From Pseudomonadota bacterium (GTDB lineage Bacteria; Pseudomonadota; Alphaproteobacteria; Rhizobiales; Xanthobacteraceae): a stretch of DNA of 52,515 bases. Positions 28,223 through 52,515 of the stretch are shown one piece after another (within the stretch, counting starts at the first letter, position 1; each line of letters starts with the position of its first letter). The translations under genes and the position numbers were made by a program. Location of the stretch: NCBI GenBank assembly GCA_016195095.1, contig JACQAE010000073.1, positions 1 to 52,515 on the forward strand, in the 5' to 3' direction. The notes beneath the pieces were generated by a model. It was not told where the DNA came from. It saw nothing but the letters and a program-made list of their open reading frames with translations, and made no database searches.

Positions 28223-29509
28223 TCAAAGACGGCGGTCGACGAATCGCGGCGTCTTGACGCTGCTCTCGAATTCCTTGGCCAGCGTGCCGCGATCCAGAAC
28301 GATCACAACCGGCGTCAGTCCGAATGTGTTTTTTACCGACTCTTGAAATTCCGCCGCAACGGCACCGCTTTCCGCCTCGCGCCGAACCTCGACCGATATC
28401 TGCAAATTCTCAAGATCGCGCGTCGTCACCAGCTCGGCCTTGAAATCATTGATATGGACATTCTGGAAAACAAAATCCTCGAATTCGGTGTGATTGAGGT
28501 TGATGCCGCGTATCTTGAAAAAGCCGGTGGTTCTATGCGCGTGCCTGAGGATGGGGAATACGGAAAAGGGGCCTGCGCCATCGACGCTTTCGCGCCAGGT
28601 CACGAGATCGCCGGAACTCCAGCGCAGGAATGGCGTGACGTTGTTGGTCCAGAGCGGCGTGACCACCAAGGTACCGACTTCATCCTCGGGGACGGGCTCG
28701 AGCGTCGCCGGATCGAGTACCTCCATCAGGTACATATCGCTCCAAACACGAAAGCCTTGGCCGGCCTCGTCTTCGGCGCCCATCAGCCCGGCTTCGGTCA
28801 TGCCGAAGGTGTCGCGCACTTGCGCACCCCATTGGCGTGCCAGCTTTGTGCGTTTGGCGTCGGACAATGGCTCGGCCGAGCACAGGATTGTGGTGACCGA
28901 ACTCTCGGCAAGATCGATGCCCTGCGCCTCGGCCAGATTGGCGAGGTGCAGCCCGTAGCTGCTCATGCCCATCCAGATGTTGGGTTTCAGCCGCTGAATG
29001 AGCTCAAGCTGCATCCGCGAAGGCGTGGTCGCGCCGGAGCCGGCCCAATTCGCGGCGATGCCGGCGAGGCCCGCCGCGCGCGCCATCAAATGACCGACCG
29101 GATGGATTCCGAGCGGAAATGAAACATGCGCCGCGCCGCCCTGCGCACAGCCGGTGCAGGCGTAGGTCCGCGCAAAGCTCGCGAGTGTATATTCGACGTC
29201 CGTGAAACTTCGCGGATAGAACAGCGGCGCGCCCGTGGAGCCGCCAGAGCGCCAGTATTCTGCGATGCCATCTGCAGGAGTGAGGCAGAAATCGCCATAA
29301 AATTCCTGATCGGAGAGGTTGCGCAACATTTCCTTGTCAAGAATTGGAATCTTGCGCCATACGTTTGGATCTTCGAGTTTGCGCAGGTCGATGTTGTCGA
29401 GTTTCCCCTTGTAGAAAGGGACGCGCCGCGCCTGATCGACAGCACGCCACTTACGGTTGCGTTGGATGTCTTTAATTTCGTCTCGCGATGTCGGCAGCCG
29501 CAGCGGCAT
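28223..29509 (-). CDS. Adenylate-forming enzyme of the PaaK / CapK / coenzyme F390 synthetase family
   Basis: Contains YWRSGGSTGAPLFYPRS (AMP-binding loop of the PaaK family), then ...TEAGLMGAE... and a C-terminal ACT-like tail. Start trimmed to MPLRLPTSRDEIKDIQ (ATG at 29509). Confidence 0.8.
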   Translation of the reverse strand: MPLRLPTSRDEIKDIQRNRKWRAVDQARRVPFYKGKLDNIDLRKLEDPNVWRKIPILDKEMLRNLSDQEFYGDFCLTPADGIAEYWRSGGSTGAPLFYPRSFTDVEYTLASFARTYACTGCAQGGAAHVSFPLGIHPVGHLMARAAGLAGIAANWAGSGATTPSRMQLELIQRLKPNIWMGMSSYGLHLANLAEAQGIDLAESSVTTILCSAEPLSDAKRTKLARQWGAQVRDTFGMTEAGLMGAEDEAGQGFRVWSDMYLMEVLDPATLEPVPEDEVGTLVVTPLWTNNVTPFLRWSSGDLVTWRESVDGAGPFSVFPILRHAHRTTGFFKIRGINLNHTEFEDFVFQNVHINDFKAELVTTRDLENLQISVEVRREAESGAVAAEFQESVKNTFGLTPVVIVLDRGTLAKEFESSVKTPRFVDRRL

Positions 29510-30244
29510 AAAAATCAATCCGTCGAGCTTTGTACGATAACACGCCAATCCATCGACGTTTGCAATACATTTTGCGGACACCGGATCGCGGTTTCGTCCA
29601 TCGCGCGTCGCCGCGCAATTTCGTTTGTGTCATGCCGCCGATGCGCCGATGCGCAATGCGCCGTTCCGCTCGGTGATCAATATGCATGAAGAAATTTCGC
29701 GGAATAGATCGCGGCTATTGCGGCGTGGTGTCGAGATGGGTGAGCATCAAGAGGGATGATTGACGCAGCGCGCGCGGACGGCTCGCGGCCGCGTTCAAGG
29801 TGAAATCGTGCTTGATGCGGTTCGGGGGCGGCAGGGTGAGGTAAGCGATATCGCGTTTAATCTCCGCGTGCCGCCGCCGCTTTGTCGCTCATTCGATCAA
29901 AACCCTCGGTGGCATCGCCACCATGCCGCGTAATCCGCGCAGATCCGAGATCACAATCAGCATGCTGGTCTCGATCGTCGGATTCGTGGCTTCGTCCCAT
30001 CGAGAATATGCTGGGCGCGCGATCCAGCAATGCCAGCATCGGGCTATTCGATGATGCCATTCGACGCTCTTTCCTTGCCACCTTATTGTCAGCCGACAAA
30101 TTTCCCGATAAGGGAGCGGATCGTGGGCCCAATTTTGAATTTGACGTGTTTGTGCTTTTCAGGCCGATTGTCCAAGACTTCGGTACAGGGGGATGCCCAA
30201 CCAGAAAGCGAGGAAGTCGGAGCAATTCAGTGGGGTAGGGTTCC

Positions 30245-31453
30245 ATGCATATTGTTGTGAGCGAAAATTTTGCTCCCGGCGATACGTCGACCGCCGAATT
30301 CATGTCGGCGATTGCCGAGGAAATCGCCCGCGATCGGCGGGTGGTGGTCCTGTCTGGAACCCCCGGTTCGTCAGCGCAGCGAGATGATTGCAACCTGCAG
30401 GTTGTCGAATTTTCCAATTGGCGGCCCGCGAAAAAATCGTTGACGTTGCGCGCCCTAGCCATGACTTGGTTCTGTTTGGCGACGTTCGGATTTGTCTTGC
30501 GGCGGAGCACGCACCTGACGCCGGTTATCGTTGTGACCGCGCCGTTTCTTCTGCCTTACTCAACCGTCCTGGCGGCTTGGATCAAACGCGCGCCGACGGC
30601 TCTTATTGTTTTTGATCTTTATCCCGATGCCATCATTGCCGCCGGGCTCATCACTCCCAACTCGCTGCTTGCACGGCTCGTGCGGCGGTTCAATGAATGG
30701 CTCTACCGCGCGCTTGACGTCATTGTGATCATTGGTCGCGACATGGAGAACCATTTCGCCCAATACCGCGCCGCGACCGCCCACAAGCTCGAATACATCC
30801 CGAACTGGGCAACGGTGTCGCCTCGATTGCGTCCGATTGACCAATGCCATCCGTTTCGCGCGGGCCGTTCGGATTGCTTTTTTGTCGGTCTTTCGGGAAA
30901 TCTAGGGTTCACGCATGATCCGGAAACGGTTTTCGCCGCCGCGCGACGGTTGGCGAATAATGATCGTATTTGCTTCTTGCTCTCGGGCTGGGGGCTTGGC
31001 TGGGAGCGGATCAAGCGCCTGCAACAGGCGGAGAGGTTGCCGAATATTCGGCTTATCGAGCGGGTGCCATCGGCGCAGCTCGAGGACTTTCTCGCTGTCG
31101 CGGATGTATGGATCATTCCCTATCGCAAGCACATGGCCGGCGTTTCGGTACCGAGCCGGTTCTATAATCTGCTCGCGGTCGGCCGACCGATCATTGCGCT
31201 TGCCGAGGCCGATGCCGAGCACGCGATGATCCTGAGCGAACACGACGTGGGCTGGGTCGTCCCGCCCGAGGACCCCGATGCGCTCGCCGCCACGATCTGC
31301 AACGCGGCCGCGGACCACGCGGCGGTGGCGGCGAAAGGGCGGCGGGCGGTCGGCATTATTGGCGACCGGTTCACGCGCGCGGCATCCGGCCGCGCCTATC
31401 GAATGCTGGCCCAGAGGCTGTGCCGGCCGGTGGGCTCGACCCTATCGGCATGA
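30245..31453 (+). CDS. Glycosyltransferase family 4 (GT-B fold, WcaI-like)
   Basis: Begins MHIVVSENFAPGDTSTAEFMS. The C-terminal half has ...FVGLSGNLGFTHD... and ...RFYNLLAVGRPIIALAE..., typical of WcaI-like GT4 enzymes. Confidence 0.8.
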   Translation: MHIVVSENFAPGDTSTAEFMSAIAEEIARDRRVVVLSGTPGSSAQRDDCNLQVVEFSNWRPAKKSLTLRALAMTWFCLATFGFVLRRSTHLTPVIVVTAPFLLPYSTVLAAWIKRAPTALIVFDLYPDAIIAAGLITPNSLLARLVRRFNEWLYRALDVIVIIGRDMENHFAQYRAATAHKLEYIPNWATVSPRLRPIDQCHPFRAGRSDCFFVGLSGNLGFTHDPETVFAAARRLANNDRICFLLSGWGLGWERIKRLQQAERLPNIRLIERVPSAQLEDFLAVADVWIIPYRKHMAGVSVPSRFYNLLAVGRPIIALAEADAEHAMILSEHDVGWVVPPEDPDALAATICNAAADHAAVAAKGRRAVGIIGDRFTRAASGRAYRMLAQRLCRPVGSTLSA

Positions 31454-31462
31454 GGTTCGCGC

Positions 31463-32416
31463 ATGGCATCAGCCGGTGAGCGTATTGTATTGCTGACCGG
31501 CGCGAGCGGATTTCTCGGGCCCTATATCGCGACCGCCGCGATCGAGGCAGGTTGGCGAGTTCGCGCCGCGTTGCGCAAACCGGCCGCCAATATCGGTGCA
31601 GATGCGGTGTTCGTCGGCGCCATCGGGTCTCGGACCGATTGGACCGCGGCACTCGCCGGCGTCGATGCCGTCGTTCACCTTGCCGCGAGGGTCCATCGTC
31701 CGCGCGCGGTTCAGCGCGTCGAGCGCGACGCCTACGTGGAGGTAAATACCGAGGGGGCGTTGTGCCTGGCACGCGCGGCGGCGGTGGCGGGCGTGCGGCA
31801 TTTCGTGTTCATGAGCAGCATTTTTGTAAATGGACTGGCGACCGATGGTCGCGCCGCGTTCAATGAAATGGACTTACCCGCGCCCGGCAGCGTTTATGGG
31901 GAGACCAAGGCCGCCGCCGAGGTGGGTCTGCGCGCGATTGTCACCCAGTCCGCCATGGCCTGCACCGTCATCCGCCCGCCGATGATCTATGGCCGCCACG
32001 CCAAGGGCAGTTTTCGTGCTCTTGTGCGCGCCATATCGGCCGGCCTGCCGCTGCCCTTTGCCGCGGTGCGTAACCGGCGTGCGTTTGTCGCCGCCGAGAA
32101 TGTCGCGAGTTTTGTCGCCTGGCGCCTCGCCGGCGGCGCGCATGGCTTCGAGACCTTTATCGTCGCCGACGATGAGCAGCTCTCCACCGCTGAACTCTCC
32201 CGCCATGTGGCTCGCACTCTGGGTCGGCGGGCGATGCTATTTCCATTTCCGACGACGATGCTGAGGGCGGCGCTACGAATAGCGGGCTTGTCGGATTTGG
32301 CGGACAGTACGCTCGGGTCGCTGGAAGTGGACACCGGTAAGGCGCGCGCCGCCGGGTGGCGGCCGGCCGTGACGATGGAAGAGGGCCTGGCACGTGCACT
32401 GCGGCCAGAAAGGTGA
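31463..32416 (+). CDS. NAD-dependent sugar epimerase/dehydratase (extended SDR)
   Basis: RIVLLTGASGFLGPYI (Rossmann motif) and YGETKAAAE (YxxxK); 317 aa. Confidence 0.8.
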   Translation: MASAGERIVLLTGASGFLGPYIATAAIEAGWRVRAALRKPAANIGADAVFVGAIGSRTDWTAALAGVDAVVHLAARVHRPRAVQRVERDAYVEVNTEGALCLARAAAVAGVRHFVFMSSIFVNGLATDGRAAFNEMDLPAPGSVYGETKAAAEVGLRAIVTQSAMACTVIRPPMIYGRHAKGSFRALVRAISAGLPLPFAAVRNRRAFVAAENVASFVAWRLAGGAHGFETFIVADDEQLSTAELSRHVARTLGRRAMLFPFPTTMLRAALRIAGLSDLADSTLGSLEVDTGKARAAGWRPAVTMEEGLARALRPER

Positions 32417-32759: not shown

Positions 32760-34073
32760 ATGCGAGGTAAAGGACAGGCACTTTATCGGCGGGCGCGCGA
32801 AATTATTCCAGGCGGCACGCAATTGCTGTCCAAGCGGCCGGAAATGTTTCTACCGGAACAGTGGCCCGCCTATTACCGATCCGCCAAGGGTGCGGATGTC
32901 GTCGATCTCGACGGGCGCACCTATCTCGATATGACTTATTGCGGGATTGGCGCCACGGTTCTTGGCTATGCGGATCCCGACATTGACGCGGCTGTGAAAG
33001 AGGCAATCGATCTTGGCGCCATGTCGACGCTGAATTGTGCCGAGGAGGTGGAACTCGCCGAGCTGGTCATCGAATTGCATCCGTGGGCCGAAATGGTGCG
33101 CTTCGGGCGCGCCGGCGGCGAAGCCATGGCGGTTGCGGTGCGCATCGCGCGCGCGGCGACCGGCCGTGACATGCTGGCGTTCTGCGGCTATCACGGCTGG
33201 CACGATTGGTACCTCAGCGCCAATCTCGGCGAGACGACGGCGCTCGACGGGCATCTCCTTCCCGGCCTCGATCCCGCCGGCGTTCCGCGCGGGCTTGCCG
33301 GCCTCATGCGACCTTTTCATTACAATCGCCTGGACGAGATCGAGGCGATCGTCGCCGAACATGGCGACCGGCTGGCCGCGATCGTCATGGAGCCGGTGCG
33401 CAGCAGCGAACCCGACAAGGGCTTCCTTGATGGTATCCGCCGGCTGGCCGATTCGTGTGGCGCGGCATTGATATTCGACGAGGTGACCTCCGGCTTTCGC
33501 ATCAATACCGGCGGCGCGCATCTCGCCTTTGGCGTGGATCCGGATATCGCGGTATTCGCCAAGGGCATGGCCAACGGTTATCCGATGGCGGCCATCATCG
33601 GCCGGCGTTCAATGATGGATGCCGTGCAGGACACCTTCGTGAGCAGCACCATGTGGACCGAGCGTGTCGGCCCGGCCGCCGCGCTCGCAACGATACGCAA
33701 GCATCGCGAGCGCCATGTCGCGCGCCATCTCATGCGCATCGGCAAGCGGATACAGGAGGGATGGGAAAAGGCGTCGCGCGATGCGGCGCTGCCGATCCAT
33801 GTTTCTGGCATCCCGCCGCTTGGCCACTTTGCGTTCGATATTCCTGCCGCGCAGGAGGTGCGCAGCCTGTTCACGCAGATGATGCTTGATCGCGGCATCC
33901 TCGCCGCAGGGTCGTTTTATGCGATGTACGCGCATACCGACGCGCATGTCGACCGCTACCTCGCGGCGGCCGCGGATGTCTTTCGCGAGTTGAAAACGGC
34001 GGTCGATCAGAACGCCGTCCTGCAGCTCCTGCGTGGTCCCGTGGCGCATTCCGGGTTCAAGCGGCTGACCTGA
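32760..34073 (+). CDS. Class-III PLP aminotransferase, glutamate-1-semialdehyde aminomutase-like
   Basis: Motifs ALYRRAREIIPGGTQLLSKRP, FDEVTSGFR and FAKGMANGYPMAA (PLP Lys). GAGGAG lies upstream of the ATG at 32760. Confidence 0.8.
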   Translation: MRGKGQALYRRAREIIPGGTQLLSKRPEMFLPEQWPAYYRSAKGADVVDLDGRTYLDMTYCGIGATVLGYADPDIDAAVKEAIDLGAMSTLNCAEEVELAELVIELHPWAEMVRFGRAGGEAMAVAVRIARAATGRDMLAFCGYHGWHDWYLSANLGETTALDGHLLPGLDPAGVPRGLAGLMRPFHYNRLDEIEAIVAEHGDRLAAIVMEPVRSSEPDKGFLDGIRRLADSCGAALIFDEVTSGFRINTGGAHLAFGVDPDIAVFAKGMANGYPMAAIIGRRSMMDAVQDTFVSSTMWTERVGPAAALATIRKHRERHVARHLMRIGKRIQEGWEKASRDAALPIHVSGIPPLGHFAFDIPAAQEVRSLFTQMMLDRGILAAGSFYAMYAHTDAHVDRYLAAAADVFRELKTAVDQNAVLQLLRGPVAHSGFKRLT

Positions 34074-34180: not shown

Positions 34181-34846
34181 CTATGTCGCTACGCCAAATA
34201 TATCGCGTATCACGTCGCGTTGCGTGGGTGACGTTCTCGCTTTTGGATGCATCCCGTGCAACACCGCGTCGCCGGCAAGCTGCCCGCCATCGATGATGAT
34301 CGTTCCCGTCGACACAAAGGTGTTGGCGGCGACGCCGGTGCGGCCGATCACGCGGCTGGCGCCATACATCACCACGCCGCGGCCGAATGCTGGATACTCG
34401 TTGGCGAGGTTAGATCCGACCGTGCAATTGTGGTAACAGAGAAAATAGTCGCTATAGGTCGCTCGCCCGAGCACGGTGCCGACCGGGTGTTGCACGGCGA
34501 AAATCGCCGGCAGTCCAACTTCGTAATAGGCGTCGAGTGCGTGCAGCGCCTTGTTCAGCGCATAGGCCTTGTCGGCTATCGGATGGCCTGGCTTTTCGGT
34601 GAACGCGCAATTCGCCAAGTAATACAGGAAAACCGCGTATTGATCGCTGTGGTAATGCAAGAAGCGGGCGCCCTGCGCGTCATAATAGCCTTTCAAACGA
34701 ATCCGCGAAAAGCAGTAGTCGACGCGGTCAAGCGCGAGACCAACGAAACGGGGGAGATCGCCGAGGTCCGCGCCGTCGGGAAATAGGCCCTCGAATTGCC
34801 GGCGCACATATTGGGCAAGGTCCGCGCGTTCGAGCGACAGTTTCAC
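34181..34846 (-). CDS. Hexapeptide-repeat acyltransferase (serine O-acetyltransferase/CysE-like)
   Basis: C-terminal left-handed beta-helix repeats (GRGVVMYGASRVIGRTGVAANTFVSTGTIIIDGG). A GTG start at 34846, 4 nt after the hisF-like stop, is proposed because the longer ORF would overlap hisF by 176 nt. Confidence 0.65.
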   Translation of the reverse strand: MKLSLERADLAQYVRRQFEGLFPDGADLGDLPRFVGLALDRVDYCFSRIRLKGYYDAQGARFLHYHSDQYAVFLYYLANCAFTEKPGHPIADKAYALNKALHALDAYYEVGLPAIFAVQHPVGTVLGRATYSDYFLCYHNCTVGSNLANEYPAFGRGVVMYGASRVIGRTGVAANTFVSTGTIIIDGGQLAGDAVLHGMHPKARTSPTQRDVIRDIFGVAT

Positions 34847-34850
34847 GGAC

Positions 34851-35627
34851 CTAGTTCCTGCTGCCGACGCCGGCGCGCACGTTGAGCCCGCGCGAGGCGA
34901 GGTGACTTCGCAATTTGATCGGACTGTGGTCGGTAAACAGGAACATCGAGGAAATCGCCACGGCGGACGCGCCGCTTTCCAGGGCATCAATCGCGTGTTG
35001 CAGTGAACCGCAACCACCGGAAACAATCAGTGGAACACCGAGGCGTCCCGCCAGCAGGTGAATCATGTCGAGGTCGTAGCCGTCCATCGTGCCGTCGCGG
35101 TCGATCGATCCAAGCAAAATCTCCCCGCAATGCAAATCCTGGCACCGCAGCGCCCATTCGACGGGATCAAGCGGCACGCGCTCGCGCCCACCGTCGATGA
35201 AGACGTTGCAGTGGCGCGGACCGACCTTGCGATAGTCAATCGACACGGTCATGCATTGATCCCCGAAAATTCGCGCGGCCTCGCGCACGAATTGCGGTCG
35301 GCGCACGGCTTGCGAATTCACCGACACCTTGTCGGCCCCCGCGCGCAACAACGCGGCAACGTCGTCGGGCGTTCGCACGCCGCCACCGACCGTAAACGGC
35401 ATGAATATCTCTTCCGACATGCGCTCGATGACATCGACGACGCGCGCGCGCGATGCCTCGCTCGGCACGATATCGAGAACGATCAGTTCGTCGACGCCAT
35501 AATCGTTGTACACCTTCGCGGTCGTGACCGGATTTCCCGCCATGCGTTCATTCTCGAAAAAGCGGACATACTTGACCAGCCGTCCGTCGCGCAGCAGGAA
35601 CTTGGGGATCAGACGCTTTTTCAGCAT
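34851..35627 (-). CDS. hisF: Imidazole glycerol phosphate synthase cyclase-subunit paralog (HisF/WbuZ-like)
   Basis: MLKKRLIPKFLLRDGRLVKYVRF..., VGGGVRTPDDVAALLRAGADKVSVNS, PLIVSGGCGS. The location inside a glycan locus points to the sugar-amidination paralog rather than the histidine-pathway enzyme. Confidence 0.85.
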   Translation of the reverse strand: MLKKRLIPKFLLRDGRLVKYVRFFENERMAGNPVTTAKVYNDYGVDELIVLDIVPSEASRARVVDVIERMSEEIFMPFTVGGGVRTPDDVAALLRAGADKVSVNSQAVRRPQFVREAARIFGDQCMTVSIDYRKVGPRHCNVFIDGGRERVPLDPVEWALRCQDLHCGEILLGSIDRDGTMDGYDLDMIHLLAGRLGVPLIVSGGCGSLQHAIDALESGASAVAISSMFLFTDHSPIKLRSHLASRGLNVRAGVGSRN

Positions 35628-35636: not shown

Positions 35637-36287
35637 TCAGGGATTCCAGCGCAGAAAATTGCCGAGCAATTCGATACCGCTGTCCTGGCTCTTTTCCGGG
35701 TGGAATTGCGTCGCGACGATATGATCGCGCGCGACAATGGCGGTGATTGATTGGCCGTACTGCGCGCATCCCACCACATCGCGCTCGTCGTTGCAGTGCA
35801 TGGAAAAACTGTGGACGAAATAGAATGCGAGATTGCCTGGCCGGATCGCGGCCAGGGCCGGATGCTCGCGCATCTTGCTCACCGTGTTCCAGCCCATATG
35901 CGGTATCTTGAGTTCCGGGTCGTTGGGGCGAATGCGCCTTATGTCGGCGTCGAGCCAGCCAAGACCGCGGTGCGGCTCGCCATCGTCGGCGTGCTCCTCG
36001 GAGGCGCGGGCGAGCAGTTGCATGCCGAGACACACGGCAAGGAAGGGCTTGCCCTTCTCGCGCACCACACGCTCAAGCACGTCGTCAAGGCCGCGCGCGC
36101 GCAACTTCGCCATCGCGTCGCCGAAGGCGCCAACGCCCGGCAGGATCACGTGCGAGGCGTCCTCGATGGCCGCCCGATCCTGCGAAATGACGGGATCGAA
36201 CCCGCAATATTCAACGGCATTGCGTACCGAGCGAATATTGTTGATGCCGTAATCGACGATTGCAACGTGTAACATGTTCGACGGCAT
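35637..36287 (-). CDS. hisH: Glutamine amidotransferase subunit paralog (HisH/WbuY-like)
   Basis: VAIVDYGINN, the catalytic Cys in FLAVCLGMQLL, and ATQFHPEKS. Confidence 0.85.
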   Translation of the reverse strand: MPSNMLHVAIVDYGINNIRSVRNAVEYCGFDPVISQDRAAIEDASHVILPGVGAFGDAMAKLRARGLDDVLERVVREKGKPFLAVCLGMQLLARASEEHADDGEPHRGLGWLDADIRRIRPNDPELKIPHMGWNTVSKMREHPALAAIRPGNLAFYFVHSFSMHCNDERDVVGCAQYGQSITAIVARDHIVATQFHPEKSQDSGIELLGNFLRWNP

Positions 36288-36289
36288 TT

Positions 36290-37084
36290 CTACTCAACGT
36301 AAGGGCGAATAAAAGCCGAAAGATTCCTGTTGGCGATATTCTGCCTGACCTGCTCGGGCGACGGCCTCCGACTTAGATATTCGCGCGCCACCTCGTCGTG
36401 AAAATCAACGTTTTTCGTATACCGCATTTCCCGCGAGCGATCCTGCGGCACAGGCGGTTGATCGAATAGCGTTCCATTCTTAATGTGATGACACATCGCA
36501 TTCTGTACGACATCGACCGACACCATCCCTAGCACAAAAGGATCGATCGCTTGGGCACGTGGCAAGGCGTGAAGAAGAATTGGTCCGTTGTCGAGACCCT
36601 TTGTAATCATGTGAATGGTGCCGAAAATGTAGTCCGGCCGCCCGTCGTAAGCAGCCCAGAAGTTACAGGAGTTTCCTCGATAATACGGTGAGGCGCCCAT
36701 ATGGATATTAACCGCACGGTTGGCGATCAGAATCTCAGCCAGCGGTCCCTTAAGGAAGCTCGCACCAAAAACCACATAATAGTCTGATTGAAGCGCGGGT
36801 TCTAGCGCGGTGACGTCGATGTCGTTCAAGTCACCCAGGAATAAAGCTAGCGACCGACAGTTTTTTGGCGGCATCGCAATGTCACCGAACACCCGTTTCT
36901 CGGCCGCACGGACGTGAGAAAAATATTCCTCCATGATCGGTGAAGCGACATAAAAGTCCTTTTTCTTGCCGGGAAACAATGTCGTACATTCTTGGACGGC
37001 AAATACTTCGCTAGCGATCGCCGACAGCTTCTCGATAAGACGGAAATGACGCGGCTGATTACTGGTAAAGACTGTAATTTTCAT
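36290..37084 (-). CDS. Formyltransferase-domain protein
   Basis: NIHMGASPYYRGNS and HMITKGLDNGPIL match the N..H...P.YRG and H....D.G catalytic motifs of the Fmt/PurN/ArnA formyltransferase fold. The gene is visibly more AT-rich than its flanks. Confidence 0.7.
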   Translation of the reverse strand: MKITVFTSNQPRHFRLIEKLSAIASEVFAVQECTTLFPGKKKDFYVASPIMEEYFSHVRAAEKRVFGDIAMPPKNCRSLALFLGDLNDIDVTALEPALQSDYYVVFGASFLKGPLAEILIANRAVNIHMGASPYYRGNSCNFWAAYDGRPDYIFGTIHMITKGLDNGPILLHALPRAQAIDPFVLGMVSVDVVQNAMCHHIKNGTLFDQPPVPQDRSREMRYTKNVDFHDEVAREYLSRRPSPEQVRQNIANRNLSAFIRPYVE

Positions 37085-41236: not shown

Positions 41237-41276
41237 CTTCCTAACTTTACACCCGGGACTTCTTAACTTTACACCC
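41237..41276. promoter_or_regulatory. Two 18-bp direct repeats (CTTCYTAACTTTACACCC) spaced 22 bp centre to centre
   Basis: CTTCCTAACTTTACACCC at 41237-41254 and CTTCTTAACTTTACACCC at 41259-41276 (17/18 identical). They lie 68-107 bp upstream of the PtmE-like ATG in an AT-richer 280-bp spacer. Confidence 0.6.
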
Positions 41277-42370: not shown

Positions 42371-42401
42371 GAAGGCTCTCCCAGTTTCTGCGGGTGCCGA
42401 C

Positions 42402-44549: not shown

Positions 44550-45656
44550 TCAACTCACGTCGATCGGTTGGTCAATCTCGTAATCGCGACCTGCCAGTCG
44601 ACCTAAATAATCCCAGTGCATTAACGGAGGAACTCCGTCGCCCGCTCGCTTAGCGGCAAGATTCGTATCGGTGAAAGGTTGACCGGTCCGTATTGGGGTG
44701 GCCGCAACCAAGCATCGCCGCGCAATCGCCCTGTTCGCGAGTTCTTCGGCAGCCGGCACCTTATGTCCGTTGCCCAAACCAGCCTCGATCTCCCGGATGC
44801 CGCGTACCATGGCACCCAAATCATCCCGTTCGATCGACGCGCGATGATCCGGACCTGGTAAGTTTCGATCGAGCGTGAAGTGTTTTTCGATGACTTGGGC
44901 GCCGAGCGCAACAGCCGCCATCGGAAAGTGTATTCCGTGCGTGTGATCGGAGAATCCAACTGGCACATTGAACGCGTGTCGCAGTGTCGTCATCGCGCGC
45001 AGATTGACGGATGAAGGCGGTGCCGGATATTCCGTCGTGCAATGCAGCAGCGTCACCTGTTCGTTGAGGATACGCCACACATCCGCATCGTTGAAAATCG
45101 AGGCAAGCGTCGCCGATCGGGGAAATTGATTGCTCGGTCGTGTGTATCCAAAGGCGATCACCGCCAGCGCCTGCTCCACCTCTGCCAGCGTCGACATGCC
45201 GGTGGAGAGGATGATCGGCAGTCCAAATCGCGCGAGATGCAATAACAGTGGCGCGTTGGTCAGGTCGCCGGAACCGACCTTCAGTGTCTTGACGCCGACG
45301 CGTTCCACGAGATGGTTGGCGCTTTCGGCGTCAAACGGCGTGGACATGAATGTTATGCCTGCGCGTTCGCACGCCTGAGCAATCGCGCATTCGTCGTCGG
45401 CGCTCAATTCGAGCGCGCGCAGCATCTCAAGCTGCGATTGTCCAGTGCCGGTCGTGGCCTCTTGGTAATTCGCCTTTGCGGCCGTGGCGGTTGCCAGTCG
45501 GTCGGCACGAAAGGATTGAAACTTCACGACGTCGGCGCCCGCGCTTGCGGCAGCGTCGACTAGCGCCAACGCACGCTCGCGGCTGCCATTGTGGTTCACG
45601 CCGGCTTCCGCAATGATCCAAGTGCGATTGTCCATGATGCTCGGCTTGGTTTTCAC
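44550..45656 (-). CDS. neuB: Nonulosonic acid synthase (N-acetylneuraminate/legionaminate/pseudaminate synthase family, with SAF domain)
   Basis: WIIAEAGVNHNGS, ...VKFQSF..., FSDHTHG and a C-terminal SAF-like domain (RCLVAATPIRTGQPFTDTNL). Confidence 0.88.
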   Translation of the reverse strand: MKTKPSIMDNRTWIIAEAGVNHNGSRERALALVDAAASAGADVVKFQSFRADRLATATAAKANYQEATTGTGQSQLEMLRALELSADDECAIAQACERAGITFMSTPFDAESANHLVERVGVKTLKVGSGDLTNAPLLLHLARFGLPIILSTGMSTLAEVEQALAVIAFGYTRPSNQFPRSATLASIFNDADVWRILNEQVTLLHCTTEYPAPPSSVNLRAMTTLRHAFNVPVGFSDHTHGIHFPMAAVALGAQVIEKHFTLDRNLPGPDHRASIERDDLGAMVRGIREIEAGLGNGHKVPAAEELANRAIARRCLVAATPIRTGQPFTDTNLAAKRAGDGVPPLMHWDYLGRLAGRDYEIDQPIDVS

Positions 45657-45664
45657 TGCCGTCG

Positions 45665-45855: not shown

Positions 45856-45980
45856 TTCGATGGTCGTCATAAAAGAGCGCCCTGCCAAATGCAACGCGGC
45901 CGCGCCGGCCGGGCGCAACGCGGTGAACGGTTGCGAGGCCCACGGTGCCGGCCCATGCCCGGTGCGGGACGAAAGCCACC

Positions 45981-46718
45981 ATGTTAGCGTCGTTGGAGAT
46001 ATTATTCCTTTTGGTCGGCCGCGCGGGATCAAAAGGCCTCCCGGGAAAGAATTTGCGCGAAATCAGCGGCTTAAGCCTTGTCGGCCACAAGGCTCGGTCG
46101 GCGCGCCGGGCACGCCATTGCGCGCGGCTGATCGTTTCCAGCGACAGCGCCGAGATTCAGGCCGAGGCTAGGCGTTTCGGCGCGGAAGTCCCGTTCACGC
46201 GGCCCGCCGAACTGGCAACCGATACGGCATCGTCCAGCGCCGTCGTTTTGCATGCCATGGATTGGATCGAAACCAATGAAGGGCGCGCTTACGACGCGAT
46301 CATGTTGCTGGAGCCGTCCTCGCCATTCGCGCGCGCGGACCATTATGACGCGGCGGTTGAATTATTCGCCGAAAAGCGGGCGGACCTCGTCGTCGGCGTT
46401 CGCGCGGTGGACGTTGCAAGCGCGTTCGTTGGAAAACTGGGCGCGGACGGATCGATCCGCGAGGCCGTTGAGAAAATCTTGCGGATCAAGGCGCTGCGCC
46501 GCCAGGACCAGGAGCTGGAAGTCACGATGAATGGCGCGCTTTATCTGATCGGCTGGCAGGCCATGCGCGAAAGCAGGCAGATCTATTCCAATCCCGCCAC
46601 GAGCTACGGCCTCCTGATGGACCGACTGCATTCGATCGAGATCGAGACGGAAGCCGACCTCGGCTATGCGACCTATGTCATCGATCAAGGCATGCTTGAT
46701 CCGCGGCCGTGGCGGTGA
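45981..46718 (+). CDS. neuA: CMP-nonulosonic acid synthetase (acylneuraminate cytidylyltransferase family)
   Basis: MLASLEILFLLVGRAGSKGLPGKNL matches the (P)ARxGSKG(I/L)PxKN loop. Start trimmed to the ATG at 45981. Confidence 0.82.
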   Translation: MLASLEILFLLVGRAGSKGLPGKNLREISGLSLVGHKARSARRARHCARLIVSSDSAEIQAEARRFGAEVPFTRPAELATDTASSSAVVLHAMDWIETNEGRAYDAIMLLEPSSPFARADHYDAAVELFAEKRADLVVGVRAVDVASAFVGKLGADGSIREAVEKILRIKALRRQDQELEVTMNGALYLIGWQAMRESRQIYSNPATSYGLLMDRLHSIEIETEADLGYATYVIDQGMLDPRPWR

Positions 46719-46726
46719 GGACGACA

Positions 46727-47893
46727 ATGCCGGCCGCCCGCCGCCGTATCGCCGTCGTCACCGGCTCGCGCGCCGATTACGGTCTGCTGCGCGAGGTGAT
46801 GCGGCGCTTGCGCGCGGCCGATGACGTCGACTTGCAGGTCGTCGTCTGCGGCATGCATCTGGCGCCGAAATTCGGCTCGACCTGGAGGGCAATCGAGGCC
46901 GACGGCTTCGCCATTTCCGCCAGGGTGGATTTTGACCTGGGTGAGGACAGTGCCGCCGCGGTCGCGCGCAGCACCGGCGTCGGAACGATCGGGTTCGCCG
47001 CGGCGCTGCCGGGACTCGCCCCCGATATTGTCGTCCTGCTCGGCGATCGCTACGAAATCGCGGCGGCCGCCGTGGCCGCGACGATACTGAATTACCCTAT
47101 CGCGCACATTCACGGCGGCGAGATCACCGCCGGCGCCTTCGACGACGCATTTCGCCATGCGATCACGAAAATGGCTTGCCTGCATTTTGTCGCCGCGGAA
47201 CCCTATCGGCAGCGCGTTATCCAGATGGGCGAAGACCCGGCTTGCGTGTTCAATGTCGGGGCGCCCGGCCTCGATCAGGCAAGCAGCGCGGCAGGGACCG
47301 GTCGCCAAGCGGCGCTCGACAGCCTAAAGGTCGCCGGCCCCTATCTGCTCGTCACGCTGCACCCCACGACCGCGCGGCCGGGAGCCGACGCGCCGACCGC
47401 CGCGGCGATGCTCGGTGCGCTGGCGCGCATCAAGGACCGCGCGATCGTCTTTACCGGCGTCAACGCCGATCCCGGTAACGGTGCGATCGAGGGTGCCATA
47501 CGCGATTTCGTCGATGCCCATGGCGATCGCGCGCGTTTGTTCACGTCGCTCGGCAGCGAGCGCTATTGGCTGGCGCTGTCGCACGCCGACGCGGTGATCG
47601 GCAATTCGTCGAGCGGCATCGTCGAGGCGCCGGCGGTCGCAACGCCGTCGGTGAATATCGGCGAACGCCAGCAAGGACGCCTGCGTGCGGCCTCGATCAT
47701 CGATTGCGCGATCGACGAGGCGGAGATTTTCGCCGCGGTGCGGCGGATTCTTGACGGCGGGTTCCGCCCCGATCCGTCGGTCGTGCCGCCCTATGGGCGC
47801 GGCGGCGCGTCAGCGCGGATCGCCGACATGCTGGCCCGAATCGACCTCAGTCGCGCCTTCCCCAAGCGTTTCCGCGACCTGCCGCGCGGCTGA
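46727..47893 (+). CDS. neuC: Hydrolysing nucleotide-sugar 2-epimerase (NeuC/LegG family)
   Basis: RRIAVVTGSRADYGLL, LGDRYE and HIHGGE. GAGGA lies upstream of the ATG at 46727. Confidence 0.85.
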   Translation: MPAARRRIAVVTGSRADYGLLREVMRRLRAADDVDLQVVVCGMHLAPKFGSTWRAIEADGFAISARVDFDLGEDSAAAVARSTGVGTIGFAAALPGLAPDIVVLLGDRYEIAAAAVAATILNYPIAHIHGGEITAGAFDDAFRHAITKMACLHFVAAEPYRQRVIQMGEDPACVFNVGAPGLDQASSAAGTGRQAALDSLKVAGPYLLVTLHPTTARPGADAPTAAAMLGALARIKDRAIVFTGVNADPGNGAIEGAIRDFVDAHGDRARLFTSLGSERYWLALSHADAVIGNSSSGIVEAPAVATPSVNIGERQQGRLRAASIIDCAIDEAEIFAAVRRILDGGFRPDPSVVPPYGRGGASARIADMLARIDLSRAFPKRFRDLPRG

Positions 47894-48217: not shown

Positions 48218-49177
48218 ATGACGCAGCCTTTGTTTGATCTTGCTGGCGCGCGGGTATTTGTTGCAGGTGACCGCGGGATGGTCGGCTCCGCCATCGTTCG
48301 CCGGCTGGCGTCGGAGAAATGCCGAATTCTCACGGCGGAGCGCGACCTTGTCGATCTGCGCCGCCAGGCGGCGGTTGACGATTGGTTTTCCAAGAACGAT
48401 CCGGATGTGCTGGTCATCGCCGCCGCGAAAGTTGGCGGCATTCATGCCAACAACACGATGCCGATCGAATTTCTCTATGACAACCTAATGATCGAGGCGA
48501 ACCTCATCCACGCCGCCGCCGCGGCCGGGGTCAGGAAGCTATTGTTCCTCGGCTCCTCTTGCATCTACCCCCGCGAGGCGCCGCAGCCGATGCGAGAGGA
48601 CGCCTTGCTCACAGGACCATTGGAGCCGACCAACGAGTGGTACGCCGTCGCCAAGATCGCCGGTATCAAGCTCGTGGAAGCCTATCGGCGGCAAAACGGC
48701 GCCGATTTCGTCTCCGTGATGCCGACCAATCTTTTCGGCCCGCGCGACAATTATCACTCAAAGCACAGCCATGTTCCGGCCGCGCTGATCCGGCGCTTTC
48801 ATGAGGCCATGGCGGCGCGCGCGCCGCATGTCGTGGTGTGGGGTAGCGGCGCGCCGCGGCGCGAATTCCTCTATGTCGATGACCTTGCGGACGCCTGTAT
48901 TTTTGTCCTCAAGAATTATTCGGGCGACGGGTTTCTCAATATCGGCACGGGCACGGACGTCACCATCGCCGAATTCGCGCGCTTGGTGGCGACCGCGACC
49001 GGATTTAAAGGCGAGATCGTGTTCGACACATCGCGACCGGACGGTGCGCCGCGCAAATTGCTCGACGTGTCGAAACTCCACGCGCTCGGCTGGCGACACA
49101 AGACCGAATTGCACGAGGCGTTGGCGCTCACCTACCGGGACTTTCTGGCGGGTGGCGGCCGCAACCAGGCCGAATAA
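48218..49177 (+). CDS. fcl: GDP-L-fucose synthase (GDP-4-keto-6-deoxymannose 3,5-epimerase/4-reductase)
   Basis: [33 protein letters not shown] and [15 protein letters not shown] lies upstream of the ATG. Confidence 0.88.
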
Positions 49178-49407: not shown

Positions 49408-50565
49408 ATGACGAGCTTGGACCACGCTGCGGGCGCGTTACCTGCGGGCGCCGTGACCGCGGACAGCGCGGCCTTGCCGGTCCCGCCGTTCCGCGGCACG
49501 TCTCTGCCCGACATCGACTATGCGTCTCATCCCGCGTATGGTGGAACGTTCCAGCCGTCGACCGCGCGCGAGCGGCTGCAGGCGCTGGTGACTTTTCTGC
49601 GCAGCTTTGCCTTTGTGACGTTCCGGCGCATCGTCGATTACGACAATATGCCGTTGCTGAGCAAAGAGGTCGGTGGCGGACGCCTCACGCCGGCGATCGC
49701 CGCGCGTTACATGGTGATATTCCCGCGCTTGCGCATTGGCCGGATCTTGCGCTCCTTGCTTGGCCAGCGCCGTGCCGCGGTTCCGGCGAACCGGGCGCTA
49801 TGCGACCGGCTCTTCAGCGATGGCATCGCCTGTCTACGATTATCCGAGGAAGAGATCGAGGCGGTCCGACGCGTCACCGCGCCCGGATTTGCCAAACTCG
49901 ATCGGCGCCGCATGGAGATTTCGCTGGAGAAGCGCAAGTTCGACGACAACGTGTATTGGTGCACGCGATCGGCCGACCCGCAGGCGTTCGAAGCCATCGA
50001 GCGAATTTTCCGGCGGCATGGAATTACCGACGCCGCCAGCGCCTATCTTGGCCGCCCGGTCGGCGTGAAACATATCAATCCGCAGATCAACGAGGAAAAT
50101 TACGCATTTTGGAAACGGCTGTTCGCCGACACCAAGGTGCCCGATCCGTGGACGAGTTACCTGCACGTCGACGCCACCTACGGCATGCTCAAGGGTGCAA
50201 TCTATATTCATGACATCGGCCCCGACAACGGGCCGTTCTGCTACGTGCGCGCCAGCCATCGCGCCAAAGTGGGCGGGTTCGAAGGCCTGATCCGCCGCAC
50301 CAACGATTTCTGCGGCTTTTCCGGACGTCGCCCCGAGGCGCGCAGGAAGTTCATGGCGCTGCCGCGCGTGCTGCGCAAGAAGGCCGATTTCGGCGGCGAT
50401 GTGCTCGACAGCTCGCCTGACGCCACGTGTTTGAAGGAAGGCCATCTTGCGGTCACCTCGGATTACGGCAACTGCGTCGTGTTTGACGGGAAGGGCATCC
50501 ACCGCGGCGGCATGGTGAACAAGGGCGAGCGGCGCTGCGTCTTTATCGTTCTGGCGGAAATCTAG
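49408..50565 (+). CDS. Fe(II)/2-oxoglutarate dioxygenase, PhyH-like
   Basis: YLHVDATYG (HxD), IHDIGPDNGPFCYVRASHR (D...NGP....SH pattern of the PhyH family) and a distal GKGIHRGG. This frame was chosen over the overlapping 48801..50213 ORF, which has low-complexity Arg/Ala-rich content. Confidence 0.65.
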   Translation: MTSLDHAAGALPAGAVTADSAALPVPPFRGTSLPDIDYASHPAYGGTFQPSTARERLQALVTFLRSFAFVTFRRIVDYDNMPLLSKEVGGGRLTPAIAARYMVIFPRLRIGRILRSLLGQRRAAVPANRALCDRLFSDGIACLRLSEEEIEAVRRVTAPGFAKLDRRRMEISLEKRKFDDNVYWCTRSADPQAFEAIERIFRRHGITDAASAYLGRPVGVKHINPQINEENYAFWKRLFADTKVPDPWTSYLHVDATYGMLKGAIYIHDIGPDNGPFCYVRASHRAKVGGFEGLIRRTNDFCGFSGRRPEARRKFMALPRVLRKKADFGGDVLDSSPDATCLKEGHLAVTSDYGNCVVFDGKGIHRGGMVNKGERRCVFIVLAEI

Positions 50566-50736
50566 CACTCGATGCCGGCCGAATCGCGCGAAGCGGTTCG
50601 CGGGCGACATCATGCCGCGAATTTGGCAATCGGCCGCGTTCATGATTGCCGATCGATTCAACGCAAAGTCGTCGAGGTCCAGCGGGCGGCGATCGCGCAC
50701 GTGAGCGATCAAACTCCACCGCGCGGTTGCGGCGCG

Positions 50737-51534
50737 CTAGGCCCCCCGACCTTTGCGTGACGGCCGGTTGAGGTAGTCCGCCAGCTGCTCGGGGCCAAAA
50801 AAGGCCGCATGTTTTCGCAGAACGCCGTCCTTGCGAACGAGAGCAAGGTCAATTTGCGCCAGGGCACCGTCGAGCGATCGATTGTGGCCTTCCAATACGT
50901 CATAGACCGCGAACCCAGCCTCGTCGCAGTAGCGCACGATGTCGGCGAATTCCGGGATTGCATGGCGCAGCGGCAGCAGCGAGGTCTCGACAATCATTAG
51001 GTCGATCTCCGCGATGCGCCGGCCGAGCCCCTTGAGAACCTCAATCTCGGCCCCCTGGGTGTCGATCTTCAAGAGCACCGGACGGGCGATGTCCGCCGGC
51101 AACAGCGAGTCAAGCCGTCGCATCGGCGTTGGTCGCGCCTCCCCGTCCAACGCCGCCCCCTCGACCTGCGCAAAGAGGCTCGACCCGGAAATGTCATCAT
51201 GGACATTGAAGGTGACCTCGCCGTCCGTGGCGCCGGCTGCCACCAGGAAATATTCGGCGTTCAATCGCTGCTTGAGCTGATCCAGAACCGGCCGGCATTC
51301 GGCGACGGGCTCGACCAAATAATAGCGCGCGTGCGGCAATGACCGATAGAGGCCGGGCGTGCCGAAGGCGACGCCCACATCGATCACGGTCTGCACATTG
51401 AAATCGAGCGCCTTGAGATGGCGAAAAAAGATGGGAAAGCTGCGCGTCGGCGCGTCCAGTCGCTGTAGGCGCACGCCGAATGGCGCAAGCGCATGGTTGA
51501 TCCCGCGGAAGGCTGCTGAGATCAACGCGTTCAT
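50737..51534 (-). CDS. FkbM-family methyltransferase
   Basis: VIDVGVAFGTPGLY (SAM motif I) and LLKIDTQGAEIEVLKG (FkbM signature). Confidence 0.82.
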   Translation of the reverse strand: MNALISAAFRGINHALAPFGVRLQRLDAPTRSFPIFFRHLKALDFNVQTVIDVGVAFGTPGLYRSLPHARYYLVEPVAECRPVLDQLKQRLNAEYFLVAAGATDGEVTFNVHDDISGSSLFAQVEGAALDGEARPTPMRRLDSLLPADIARPVLLKIDTQGAEIEVLKGLGRRIAEIDLMIVETSLLPLRHAIPEFADIVRYCDEAGFAVYDVLEGHNRSLDGALAQIDLALVRKDGVLRKHAAFFGPEQLADYLNRPSRKGRGA

Positions 51535-51737
51535 GGATTATCCGTCGTGATTTTCGCGACTTCCGCGGCGGCACGCGGGGATACGACGCGCGGCCCGCGC
51601 CAGCTTGCGACACGTGTCCCGGTTTGGTAGAGCACCGGGCATAGGTGGTCAAGCCGTGCGCCGAACGGCGCCTTCGCGCTGGGCGCCGCGATCGCCCAAG
51701 ACCAAATTTTCCGCTGGCGCGATACCCGGGTATCGAC

Positions 51738-52515
51738 ATGAAGGTTCTGGTGACCGGAAGCGCCGGATTCATCGGCCAGGCCGTGGTTGACGCGCTGCGC
51801 GCGAAAGCATGGTCGGTCGCCGGCCTCGATCGCGCGGATGCCGCGGGCGGCACGGCGTGCGACTACAGGTGCGATCTCCTCGACGCGGATCGATTGACCC
51901 ATTGCGTGCGCGAATTCGCGCCGCACGCCATCGTGCATCTTGCCGCGCGCACCGATCTCGACGAAAAAACCAACCTCGCCGGCTACGCCGCGAATATCGA
52001 TGGCGTGGAGAACCTCATCGCGGCGGTTCGCGCCACGCCGTCGGTGCGGCGTGCGATCTGGACGTCGTCGCAGCTCGTCTGCAAGATCGGCTATGTTCCA
52101 CGCGATGACACGGACTACAATGCGGACACGCTTTATGGCCAAAGCAAGATCCGCACTGAGAGGATCGTGCGCGATAGCGACGGCGGCGGGCGCGAGTGGT
52201 GCCTGGCGCGCCCGACCACGGTCTGGGGACCGGGCATGAGCGCGCATTATAGGCGCTTTCTGCGCATGATCGAGCGTGGCTATTATTTTCACGTCGGCCG
52301 GGCACCGATTTGGAAGTCTTACAGCTATATTGGCAATATCGCGTTTCAGTACACGCGCCTCCTCGAGGCGCCGGTAGACCGGCTCCAGCGCAAGACGTTC
52401 TACCTCGCGGATTATGAGCCGATCGATCTGTTGGCTTGGTGCGATGCCCTTGGCCGCGCGTTTGGATCGCGCGCGATCCCGCATTTGCCGCGTGGCGTCG
52501 CCGCGGCCCTCGCCG
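51738..52515 (+). CDS. NAD-dependent epimerase/dehydratase (extended SDR), 3-prime partial at the window edge
   Basis: Own translation from the ATG at 51738: MKVLVTGSAGFIGQAVVDALRAKAWSVAGLD...YGQSKIRTERIV...FYLADYEPIDLL, open to the end of the window. It is absent from the ORF track because no stop is reached. The listed 51531..52484 minus ORF is its antisense shadow. Confidence 0.8.
   Translation, partial: MKVLVTGSAGFIGQAVVDALRAKAWSVAGLDRADAAGGTACDYRCDLLDADRLTHCVREFAPHAIVHLAARTDLDEKTNLAGYAANIDGVENLIAAVRATPSVRRAIWTSSQLVCKIGYVPRDDTDYNADTLYGQSKIRTERIVRDSDGGGREWCLARPTTVWGPGMSAHYRRFLRMIERGYYFHVGRAPIWKSYSYIGNIAFQYTRLLEAPVDRLQRKTFYLADYEPIDLLAWCDALGRAFGSRAIPHLPRGVAAALA

Follow-up and report, generated by a model that had tools for sequence, protein, structure and literature searches.

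Which sugar is made, and by what route, by a gene cluster that surrounds a single nonulosonic acid pathway with amidino-, formyl-, carbamoyl- and methyl-transfer genes? The question is raised by the right-hand part (28.2-52.5 kb) of a 52,515-nucleotide stretch of DNA from a bacterium of the family Xanthobacteraceae (contig JACQAE010000073.1; the whole stretch is called the window below), which an earlier note had described as a nonulosonate locus of the GDP-linked legionaminic acid type with an unusually dense tailoring set. That description is upheld, and we consider it probable that the region is the left approximately 24 kb of a Wzx/Wzy-type surface-polysaccharide locus that makes and uses heavily modified CMP-legionaminic acid by the GDP-linked route. 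Open reading frame (ORF) calling and Pfam/NCBIfam scans of this region recovered all of the gene types that had been named, at or near the positions proposed (Table 1), and brought the number of genes from 25 to about 21. ORF 29857-30510 on the minus strand and other shadow ORFs, with zero family matches, were dropped as non-genes.

The core genes point to the legionaminic acid (Leg) branch. NeuB passes the TIGR03569 model and fails the PseI model (233 bits, below the cutoff of 340), and its best Protein Data Bank (PDB) match is SpsE, which PMC7439481 places in a legionaminic pathway. The top PDB match of NeuC is a GDP/UDP-N,N'-diacetylbacillosamine 2-epimerase (321 bits, versus 164 bits for the ManNAc-forming GNE domain), and NeuC is predicted to be of the LegG type, acting on diacetylbacillosamine. 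The PtmA-like and PtmE-like genes overlap by 4 bp in the window and are adjacent in all relatives described below; the PtmE/PtmA pair is the signature of Leg clusters, as PMC4481668 lists it for those of Plesiomonas, Vibrio fischeri, E. coli and Campylobacter. On these observations, and on the presence of true LegB and LegC genes in the relatives, we assign the locus to the legionaminic branch; a Neu5Ac or pseudaminic acid (Pse) pathway was rejected on the NeuB and PseI model scores and on the PDB matches of NeuB and NeuC. The acetamidino module WbuX/WbuY/WbuZ is present, with WbuZ scoring just under its cutoff and WbuX 85-90% identical to its counterparts in relatives. For the NeuA-like gene the sole equivalog match is the PseF model (105 bits, below the cutoff of 206). 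Kinship with the rkp-3 K-antigen regions was not borne out, as the PseI score lies below cutoff and the Sinorhizobium match in the plasmid search spans only 148 nt inside the carbamoyltransferase gene (chromosomal rkp regions were not covered).

Read as a pathway, PtmE and PtmA would supply a GDP-linked N-acetylhexosamine, judging from the chemistry of their families; LegB and LegC, probably encoded outside the window, would form the 4-amino-4,6-dideoxy intermediate; and LegG, LegI and LegF (the NeuC, NeuB and NeuA homologs) would then produce the CMP-nonulosonate. WbuX, HisH and WbuZ would convert an N-acetyl into an acetamidino group, as in Campylobacter and Legionella (Leg5Am7Ac), and a CE4 deacetylase with a formyltransferase (Fmt) would replace an N-acetyl by an N-formyl group, as in the 5-N-formyl-Leg of Halorubrum and in PseJ-type chemistry. 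The carbamoyltransferase may place a carbamoyl group on the Leg skeleton or on a GDP-sugar precursor, with O-carbamoylation as the family default and N-carbamoylation of the 4-amino intermediate, replacing the acetylation by LegH, as the alternative of greater novelty. The methyltransferases, the PhyH-like dioxygenase, Fcl and the GT4 glycosyltransferase would serve further decoration or a second (fucose-type) sugar, and the product would be an O-antigen or capsule of a Bradyrhizobium-like alphaproteobacterium.

The arrangement of the genes refutes the possibility that the tailoring genes form a separate locus, since they lie in the same co-directional strings as neuB, neuA and neuC. On the minus strand a string of genes, several of them overlapping by 4-34 bp, begins with NeuB (45656) and ends with the gene for a 221-aa protein (34181); its order is NeuB, carbamoyltransferase, Methyltransf_11 methyltransferase, PtmE-like, PtmA-like, WbuX, CE4, 264-aa formyltransferase-like, HisH, WbuZ/HisF and 221-aa protein. 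Divergent from NeuB on the plus strand are NeuA, NeuC, Fcl and the PhyH-like gene, followed by an FkbM gene on the minus strand and, on the plus strand, a short-chain dehydrogenase/reductase (SDR) gene that is cut off by the end of the window. On the left side the GT4, a second SDR and a class-III aminotransferase lie on the plus strand and a PaaK/CapK-like ligase, plausibly the left-most gene of the locus, on the minus strand.

LegB, LegC, Wzx, Wzy and a priming transferase are absent within the window, as the earlier note had reported, and syntenic relatives suggest where all of these except the transferase lie. A scan of GTDB species representatives with the terminal SDR found homologs at 62-71% identity in Bradyrhizobium (B. 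betae P42, ORS 111, SRL28 and B. tropiciagri) and in soil alphaproteobacterial metagenome-assembled genomes (MAGs). We placed all window proteins on these loci as well as on others found via homologs of the class-III aminotransferase; the resulting backbone relatives (n = 13; Bradyrhizobium genomes and soil alphaproteobacterial MAGs) match at 60-90% amino-acid identity. Their order is class-III aminotransferase; then 221-aa protein, WbuZ, HisH, WbuX, PtmA, PtmE, PglD and NeuB; then NeuA, NeuC, PhyH-like and (FkbM); then SDR. To the right of the SDR they carry a Wzy-like polymerase, a Wzx-like flippase, a conserved 463-aa protein (weak Capsule_synth likeness), LegC and LegB. LegC and LegB score above cutoff (TIGR04181, 513 bits against 420; TIGR04180, 506 bits against 475), as does the Wzy-like membrane protein (TIGR04370, 42.8 bits against 40), and the Wzx-like gene scores 20-24 bits with Polysacc_synt, below cutoff. 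The right-arm genes are kept across four loci (L004, L008, L012 and L021), with partial copies in three others (L005, L006 and L038). No initiating transferase was seen in the window or in any relative's locus. Because relatives with the same class-III aminotransferase and terminal SDR also hold true LegB and LegC, the window is most likely cut mid-locus and comprises the left two-thirds of the cluster, with LegB, LegC, Wzx and Wzy predicted beyond its right edge. The suggestion that the locus continues rightwards is thus upheld by synteny, LegC, LegB and the Wzy-like and Wzx-like genes lying 1-9 kb to the right of the terminal SDR in relatives.

The other suggestion made at the outset, namely that the locus is complete in the window, with SDR 31463-32416 (or 51645-52515) and the class-III aminotransferase as non-orthologous substitutes for LegB and LegC, we regard as highly improbable. 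It draws on the absence of LegB and LegC within the window, on the tight and wide conservation of the class-III aminotransferase beside the core (same position and 73-85% identity in L004, L040, L041, L045 and L047), and on the ability of class-III enzymes to aminate sugar carbonyls (C-6' aminotransferases are among the PDB matches), but the same aminotransferase coexists with bona fide LegC and LegB in relatives, and the last gene of the window is itself truncated. Both SDRs were rejected as LegB candidates: the LegB model gives them no more than 22-51 bits, and neither has the acidic pair of the dehydratases (SDR 31463-32416 retains YxxxK, with the T-D/S-E pair missing), and the homologs of SDR 51645-52515 in Bradyrhizobium and MAGs are themselves followed by Wzy, Wzx and, further on, LegC and LegB. 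The aminotransferase family is very large and highly conserved: identity ranges over 64-100% in the 120 homologs listed, and each of the 8000 candidates scored passes E <= 1e-30. One homolog (P0115, 691 aa) is an aminotransferase fused to NTP_transf_3/CTP_transf_3 cytidylyltransferase domains, which hints that the aminotransferase may act on a CMP-activated or nonulosonate-type substrate.

Set against this backbone, the window has three added blocks: CE4 with the formyltransferase (cassette 1), the methyltransferase with the carbamoyltransferase (cassette 2), and Fcl. The GC content at third codon positions is 0.57 for CE4/Fmt and 0.63 for methyltransferase/carbamoyltransferase, as against 0.70-0.81 for the backbone except NeuB (0.65), and none of the 13 backbone relatives has cassettes 1 and 2 together. 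What had appeared to be one exotic pathway is instead a conserved backbone plus cassettes, each of which recurs in other Leg clusters, and the tailoring density is largely explained by cassette accretion and by the truncation of the window.

Cassette 2 is the one unusual point of the cluster. It lies between PtmE and NeuB, the slot that in relatives holds the PglD/NeuD-type acetyltransferase (LegH; TIGR03570, 206 bits, cutoff 161). Of 12 backbone relatives, 11 have PglD/NeuD in this slot and the twelfth has a PurN-like formyltransferase (L006, a soil MAG, 3993-4682 on the minus strand), a second acyl-donor swap at this position. The carbamoyltransferase belongs to the TobZ/NodU/CmcH family, both of its Pfam domains scoring well above their cutoffs; its PDB matches are 7XB6, NovN, GdmN and TobZ (E 1e-71 to 1e-87), its score against the NodU equivalog is 108 bits (cutoff 1000), and the H132/H133/H136 cluster is among the residues that do not vary in 26 homologs. 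The closest homologs (57-79% identity) are found not in Bradyrhizobium-type clusters but in differently arranged Leg operons of Rhodospirillales and of marine and other MAGs, for example LegB-LegC-NeuC-NeuB-Carb-MT-(PhyH)-PtmE-PtmF-NeuA-PtmA-WbuX-HisF-HisH and LegB-LegC-Carb-MT-NeuB-NeuC-PtmE (Carb, carbamoyltransferase; MT, methyltransferase). The carbamoyltransferase adjoins NeuB or LegC in eight loci (L042, L043, L044, L048, L049, L050, L056 and L065), together with the methyltransferase in L042-L044. Identity to L042 is 72% for the carbamoyltransferase and 56% for the methyltransferase, but 48-53% for NeuB and PtmE; because the cassette genes resemble their donors more than the flanking core genes do, the comparison indicates that LegH was horizontally replaced by cassette 2.

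We then counted PglD-type genes in the visible flanks (at most 10 kb), disregarding PtmE matches to the PglD hidden Markov model, which is contaminated by fused PtmE ORFs. None of the 9 carbamoyltransferase-bearing Leg clusters shows PglD, whereas 13 of the 14 that lack the enzyme do (Fisher p 1.2e-5, for samples that are not phylogenetically independent). In each carbamoyltransferase-carrying Leg cluster examined, from soil and sea alike, the enzyme thus appears to stand in for LegH, which predicts a carbamoylated Leg. Because the carbamoyltransferase pair fills the PglD/LegH slot and PglD is split 0/9 versus 13/14, the pattern suggests an undescribed carbamoylated legionaminic acid, of which O-carbamoylation is the default expectation since all solved relatives are O-carbamoyltransferases. 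A bolder version, kept open because the carbamoyltransferase is consistently in the LegH position and LegH is absent, is in our judgement rather doubtful: a widespread soil and marine branch of Leg synthesis would use the carbamoyltransferase in place of LegH to N-carbamoylate GDP-4-amino-4,6-dideoxy-GlcNAc, perhaps with subsequent N-methylation, giving a 7-ureido Leg. If true, 7-ureido Leg would be a new class of nonulosonate N-substituent, the enzyme would be a sugar N-carbamoyltransferase, unlike all of its solved relatives, and the window would combine N-carbamoyl with acetamidino and N-formyl chemistry on one sugar.

Cassette 1 lies between HisH and WbuX. Its CE4-Fmt pair occupies the same slot in L045 (61% and 76% identity) and follows directly upon a canonical LegB, LegC, LegG, LegI, LegH, PtmE, PtmF, LegF operon in Paenibacillus thiaminolyticus (L046). 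Judged by these contexts it is a Leg-associated mobile module of two genes, and since each of the two-gene cassettes turns up again next to Leg genes of unrelated bacteria, we interpret them as exchangeable Leg-tailoring modules. A deacetylase followed by a formyltransferase suggests that an N-acetyl group is swapped for N-formyl; a precedent is Halorubrum, where N-formyl-Leg is made and the cluster encodes a formyltransferase (PMC6137143). The nearest PDB entry of the formyltransferase-like protein is PseJ (E 1e-4).

The remaining differences from the backbone concern Fcl and the slots around it. Fcl lies between NeuC and the PhyH-like gene, a position from which it is missing in all relatives, and no Gmd partner was found in the window. 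The PhyH-like dioxygenase reported earlier is present, with its start corrected to a probable 49408 (385 aa); its HxD...H triad is kept in 7 homologs, and identity in relatives is 60-67%. The FkbM slot, between the PhyH-like gene and the SDR, is occupied in some relatives by an MBOAT/AlgJ-like pair. The GT4 and Fcl imply that at least one further sugar enters the repeat unit, so that some of the tailoring may act there.

This bears on a rival reading, that the carbamoyl-, methyl- and formyl-transferases, CE4 and PhyH mostly decorate other sugars of the heteropolysaccharide, such as fucose or an amino sugar, in the manner of the methylated or carbamoylated glycans of rhizobia. We think this unlikely. 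In its favour, Fcl and the WcaI-family GT4 are evidence of at least one other sugar, characterised carbamoyltransferase relatives use diverse hydroxyl acceptors, and the FkbM slot is exchanged for the MBOAT O-acyl module in relatives. Against it, the carbamoyltransferase (usually with the methyltransferase) and CE4/Fmt are tightly, often overlappingly, linked to LegC, NeuB and PtmE in far-removed lineages, among them marine MAGs, Rhodospirillales and Paenibacillus, that differ in their remaining glycan genes, as would be expected if the Leg pathway supplied the substrate.

How far does a Leg-based surface polysaccharide of this kind resemble known systems? The O-antigen of Legionella pneumophila serogroup 1 is a polymer of 5-acetamidino-7-acetamido-8-O-acetyl-legionaminic acid, partly N-methylated, and that locus resembles the present one in its surface polysaccharide built on Leg, its acetamidino (and N-methyl) chemistry and its HisH/HisF-like helper genes; it differs in its UDP-linked precursors and in the lack of PtmE and of carbamoyl and formyl modules. 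In Campylobacter, PtmG and PtmH give Leg5Am7Ac and Leg5AmNMe7Ac. With the Campylobacter jejuni/coli leg-ptm genes of the GDP-linked CMP-legionaminic acid pathway and those of Plesiomonas, Vibrio fischeri and E. coli Elg, which represent the canonical Leg set (PMC4481668), the window shares a PtmE-type enzyme, PtmA, LegI, LegG, a gene resembling LegF, a WbuX-family enzyme and an S-adenosylmethionine (SAM)-dependent methyltransferase. Unlike Campylobacter leg-ptm, the window has neither PtmF nor LegH, its LegB and LegC would be non-adjacent and lie to the right, and its context is inferred to be a Wzx/Wzy polysaccharide rather than flagellin; it also holds CE4/Fmt, the carbamoyltransferase, PhyH, the class-III aminotransferase, Fcl and the PaaK-like ligase in addition to the Campylobacter-type set.

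The likeness to Campylobacter raises the possibility that the locus serves O-glycosylation of flagellin or another protein (Campylobacter ptm-like) and not a polysaccharide. The content of PtmA, PtmE, WbuX and methyltransferase genes recalls the Campylobacter flagellin glycosylation island (PMC4481668), but the window contains no flagellar, Maf or FlmG-type genes and the relatives' clusters include the Wzy-like polymerase and Wzx-like flippase, and we hold this alternative to be very unlikely.

The Halorubrum sp. PV6 cluster for 5-N-formyl-legionaminic acid likewise has a formyltransferase gene among leg genes (PMC6137143), but it serves an archaeal N-glycan and has no reported CE4 partner, and the window Fmt belongs to a distinct 264-aa family. 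No PDB entry matches that enzyme, which has the catalytic N-x-H...D triad, better than PseJ (6CI2, from a pathway to formylated pseudaminic acid), but the similarity is marginal (25 bits over a 70-residue stretch) and PseJ serves a Pse rather than a Leg pathway. The carbamoyltransferase shares its full-length two-domain architecture with TobZ, NovN, GdmN and NodU, which carbamoylate antibiotic or Nod-factor hydroxyls, unlike the subfamily of the window, which lies in Leg operons at the LegH position. A syntenic characterised locus was not found, in agreement with the impression that the combination was unfamiliar: blastn of 7.6 kb against 72,556 plasmids (including rhizobial megaplasmids) returned patchy single-gene matches, and the literature searched described neither a nonulosonate cluster of Bradyrhizobium nor a carbamoylated Leg or Pse, which is not proof of absence. 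Acetamidino, N-methyl(-acetimidoyl) and N-formyl legionaminic acids and the GDP-linked pathway are already known; the carbamoyl chemistry, with a carbamoyltransferase for LegH, and the particular combination are without precedent.

Several observations weigh against the interpretation of the region as a truncated, GDP-linked Leg polysaccharide locus with a carbamoyl-for-acetyl exchange. WbuZ, PtmA and NeuA all fall below curated equivalog cutoffs; no LegH (PglD/NeuD-type) gene or remnant was found in the window, including the intergenic gaps; and PtmF is missing, with zero GFO_IDH_MocA Pfam matches among the window genes of the region (it was likewise not detected by Pfam in the Bradyrhizobium-type loci L040, L041, L045 and L047). 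The rightward continuation is drawn from relatives and not from the flank of the source itself. The mutual exclusion of PglD and carbamoyltransferase was counted in phylogenetically non-independent clusters with short flanks, and the structurally characterised relatives TobZ, NovN and GdmN are all O-carbamoyltransferases. CE4 and Fmt coexist with PglD in L045 and L046, and part of the tailoring may take place on another sugar of the repeat unit.

As this locus makes plain, Bradyrhizobium-type soil bacteria have a conserved Leg backbone with slots for exchangeable acetyl, formyl, carbamoyl/methyl and O-acyl cassettes. Nonulosonic acids are major determinants of surface recognition by hosts, phages and antibodies, and their N- and O-substituents set serospecificity; in plant-associated rhizobia such variation of the O-antigen or capsule could influence symbiosis and phage resistance. 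The enzymes may also be useful for the chemoenzymatic synthesis of modified nonulosonates.

Table 1. Genes of the 28.2-52.5 kb region, with model scores (aa, amino acids; PLP, pyridoxal phosphate; curated cutoffs in brackets where available)
Feature	Position	Strand	Evidence
PaaK/CapK-like adenylate-forming ligase	28223-29581	-	AMP-binding 50 bits; NCBIfam PaaK 141 bits, well below equivalog cutoff
GT4 glycosyltransferase, WcaI family	30245-31453	+	Glyco_trans_1_4, Glyco_trans_4_4; NF007640 145 bits
Extended SDR (epimerase/reductase type), not LegB	31463-32416	+	Epimerase 93 bits; LegB model 51 bits (475)
Class-III (GSA-aminomutase-like) PLP enzyme, backbone member	32760-34073	+	Aminotran_3 148 bits; 437 aa
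221-aa protein, weakly CysE-type left-handed beta-helix acyltransferase-like	34181-34846	-	NCBIfam cysE 23.6 bits
WbuZ/HisF-like cyclase subunit	34851-35627	-	TIGR03572 286 bits (300); His_biosynth 213 bits
HisH/WbuY-like glutaminase subunit	35637-36287	-	TIGR01855 223 bits (105)
264-aa sugar N-formyltransferase-like protein, cassette 1	36290-37084	-	Pfam weak, 21.9 bits; N126-x-H128...D165 intact
CE4 (NodB-type) de-N-acetylase, cassette 1	37081-38079	-	Polysacc_deac_1 55 bits; TFDD and HSxxH motifs
WbuX/PseA/PtmG-type N-acetyl sugar amidotransferase	38046-39227	-	TIGR03573 398 bits (203)
PtmA-like classical SDR	39251-40066	-	NF006619 179 bits (255)
CBS + nucleotidyltransferase, PtmE-like sugar-1-phosphate guanylyltransferase	40063-41169	-	NTP_transferase 150 bits; CBS 49 bits
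Class-I SAM methyltransferase, cassette 2	41450-42433	-	Methyltransf_11 61 bits
TobZ/NodU/CmcH-family carbamoyltransferase, cassette 2	42402-44126	-	Carbam_trans_N 129 bits; Carbam_trans_C 223 bits
NeuB, nonulosonate synthase (LegI-type)	44550-45656	-	TIGR03569 454 bits (400)
NeuA/LegF-like CMP-nonulosonate synthetase	45945-46718	+	CTP_transf_3 52 bits, above Pfam cutoff
NeuC/LegG hydrolysing NDP-sugar 2-epimerase	46709-47893	+	TIGR03568 418 bits
GDP-L-fucose synthase (Fcl), inserted relative to backbone	48218-49177	+	NF047922 497 bits (500)
PhyH-like Fe(II)/2-oxoglutarate dioxygenase, backbone member	49408-50565	+	PhyH 23.6 bits (22)
FkbM-family methyltransferase	50737-51534	-	Methyltransf_21 55 bits; TIGR01444 64 bits
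Extended SDR, backbone member, not LegB	51645-52515, runs off end	+	Epimerase 92 bits; LegB model 22 bits

Two further genes of the backbone and its left arm deserve comment. The gene at 34181-34846, earlier called a hexapeptide acyltransferase, is conserved, but its family call is weak: the CysE-like score in Table 1 is the only support, with no Pfam or PDB match. It always lies downstream of WbuZ and is 70-80% identical in relatives. Homologs of the GT4 (56-58% identity) occur on the left arm of two relatives, L040 and L041.

Further variation was seen among the relatives. Sequences resembling an MBOAT (AlgI-like) O-acyltransferase gene and a possible AlgJ-like partner take the FkbM position between the PhyH-like gene and the SDR in L010 (3378-4913), L012 (7441-9988) and L003 (2598-5165), the likeness in L010 and L012 being judged by eye and Pfam MBOAT matches being confined to the analogous genes of L040 and L041; in L010 a Wzx-like gene shares one larger block with the MBOAT-like sequences. 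The B. betae-type right-arm block, inserted before the 463-aa gene, comprises a ~100-aa ORF, FkbH, a 344-aa protein, MaoC/SDR and CE4 (L005, 14228-19670; also L006, L038 and L010). The ~100-aa ORF, which has no family match, may be an acyl carrier protein (a PP-binding gene was seen only beside FkbH in L041), and it is possible that the block is a pathway for a glyceryl or hydroxyacyl N-acyl donor.

The sole public contig found with window-identical proteins is a 2748-bp Logan contig (L001, SRR12113409), in which HisF and HisH are 100% and the aminotransferase 98.7% identical. Exact look-ups of the FkbM protein and of the long PhyH ORF returned no record, and the terminal SDR met no identical genome among the GTDB representatives. 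A MAG labelled Thermoleophilaceae (L003, contig CAWEVH010000006.1) carries ~7 kb of backbone followed by DNA of GC 0.69-0.79, and one of its proteins is identical over its full length to part of a slightly longer ORF of Bradyrhizobium sp. SRL28; L003 is probably a chimeric contig or a very recent transfer.

Rfam and tRNA scans of the whole window were empty, a promoter/terminator scan gave counts at or below shuffled expectation, and the repeat search found no insertion sequences or long repeats flanking the cassettes. Its sole find was an 18-nt direct repeat pair at 41237-41276, CTTC(C/T)TAACTTTACACCC, whose copies stand 22 nt apart. They fall in the low-GC stretch separating PtmE from the methyltransferase, at the junction of the carbamoyltransferase/methyltransferase cassette, and may represent a regulatory site or the scar of an insertion.

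To the left of ~27 kb the window holds unrelated housekeeping genes: narGHI with a putative narK, a CDF transporter, an Lrp regulator, a molybdo-flavoprotein dehydrogenase and cytochrome b561. The respiratory nitrate reductase genes narI, narH and narG (1202-10769, minus strand) are unrelated to the glycan locus, and a 941-aa protein with three MFS_1 stretches in the same interval and on the same strand may be a fused NarK-type transporter. Abutting the PaaK-like ligase is a gene for a reductive-dehalogenase/QueG-like 4Fe-4S protein (27175-28179, minus strand; TIGR02486 117 bits, below cutoff).

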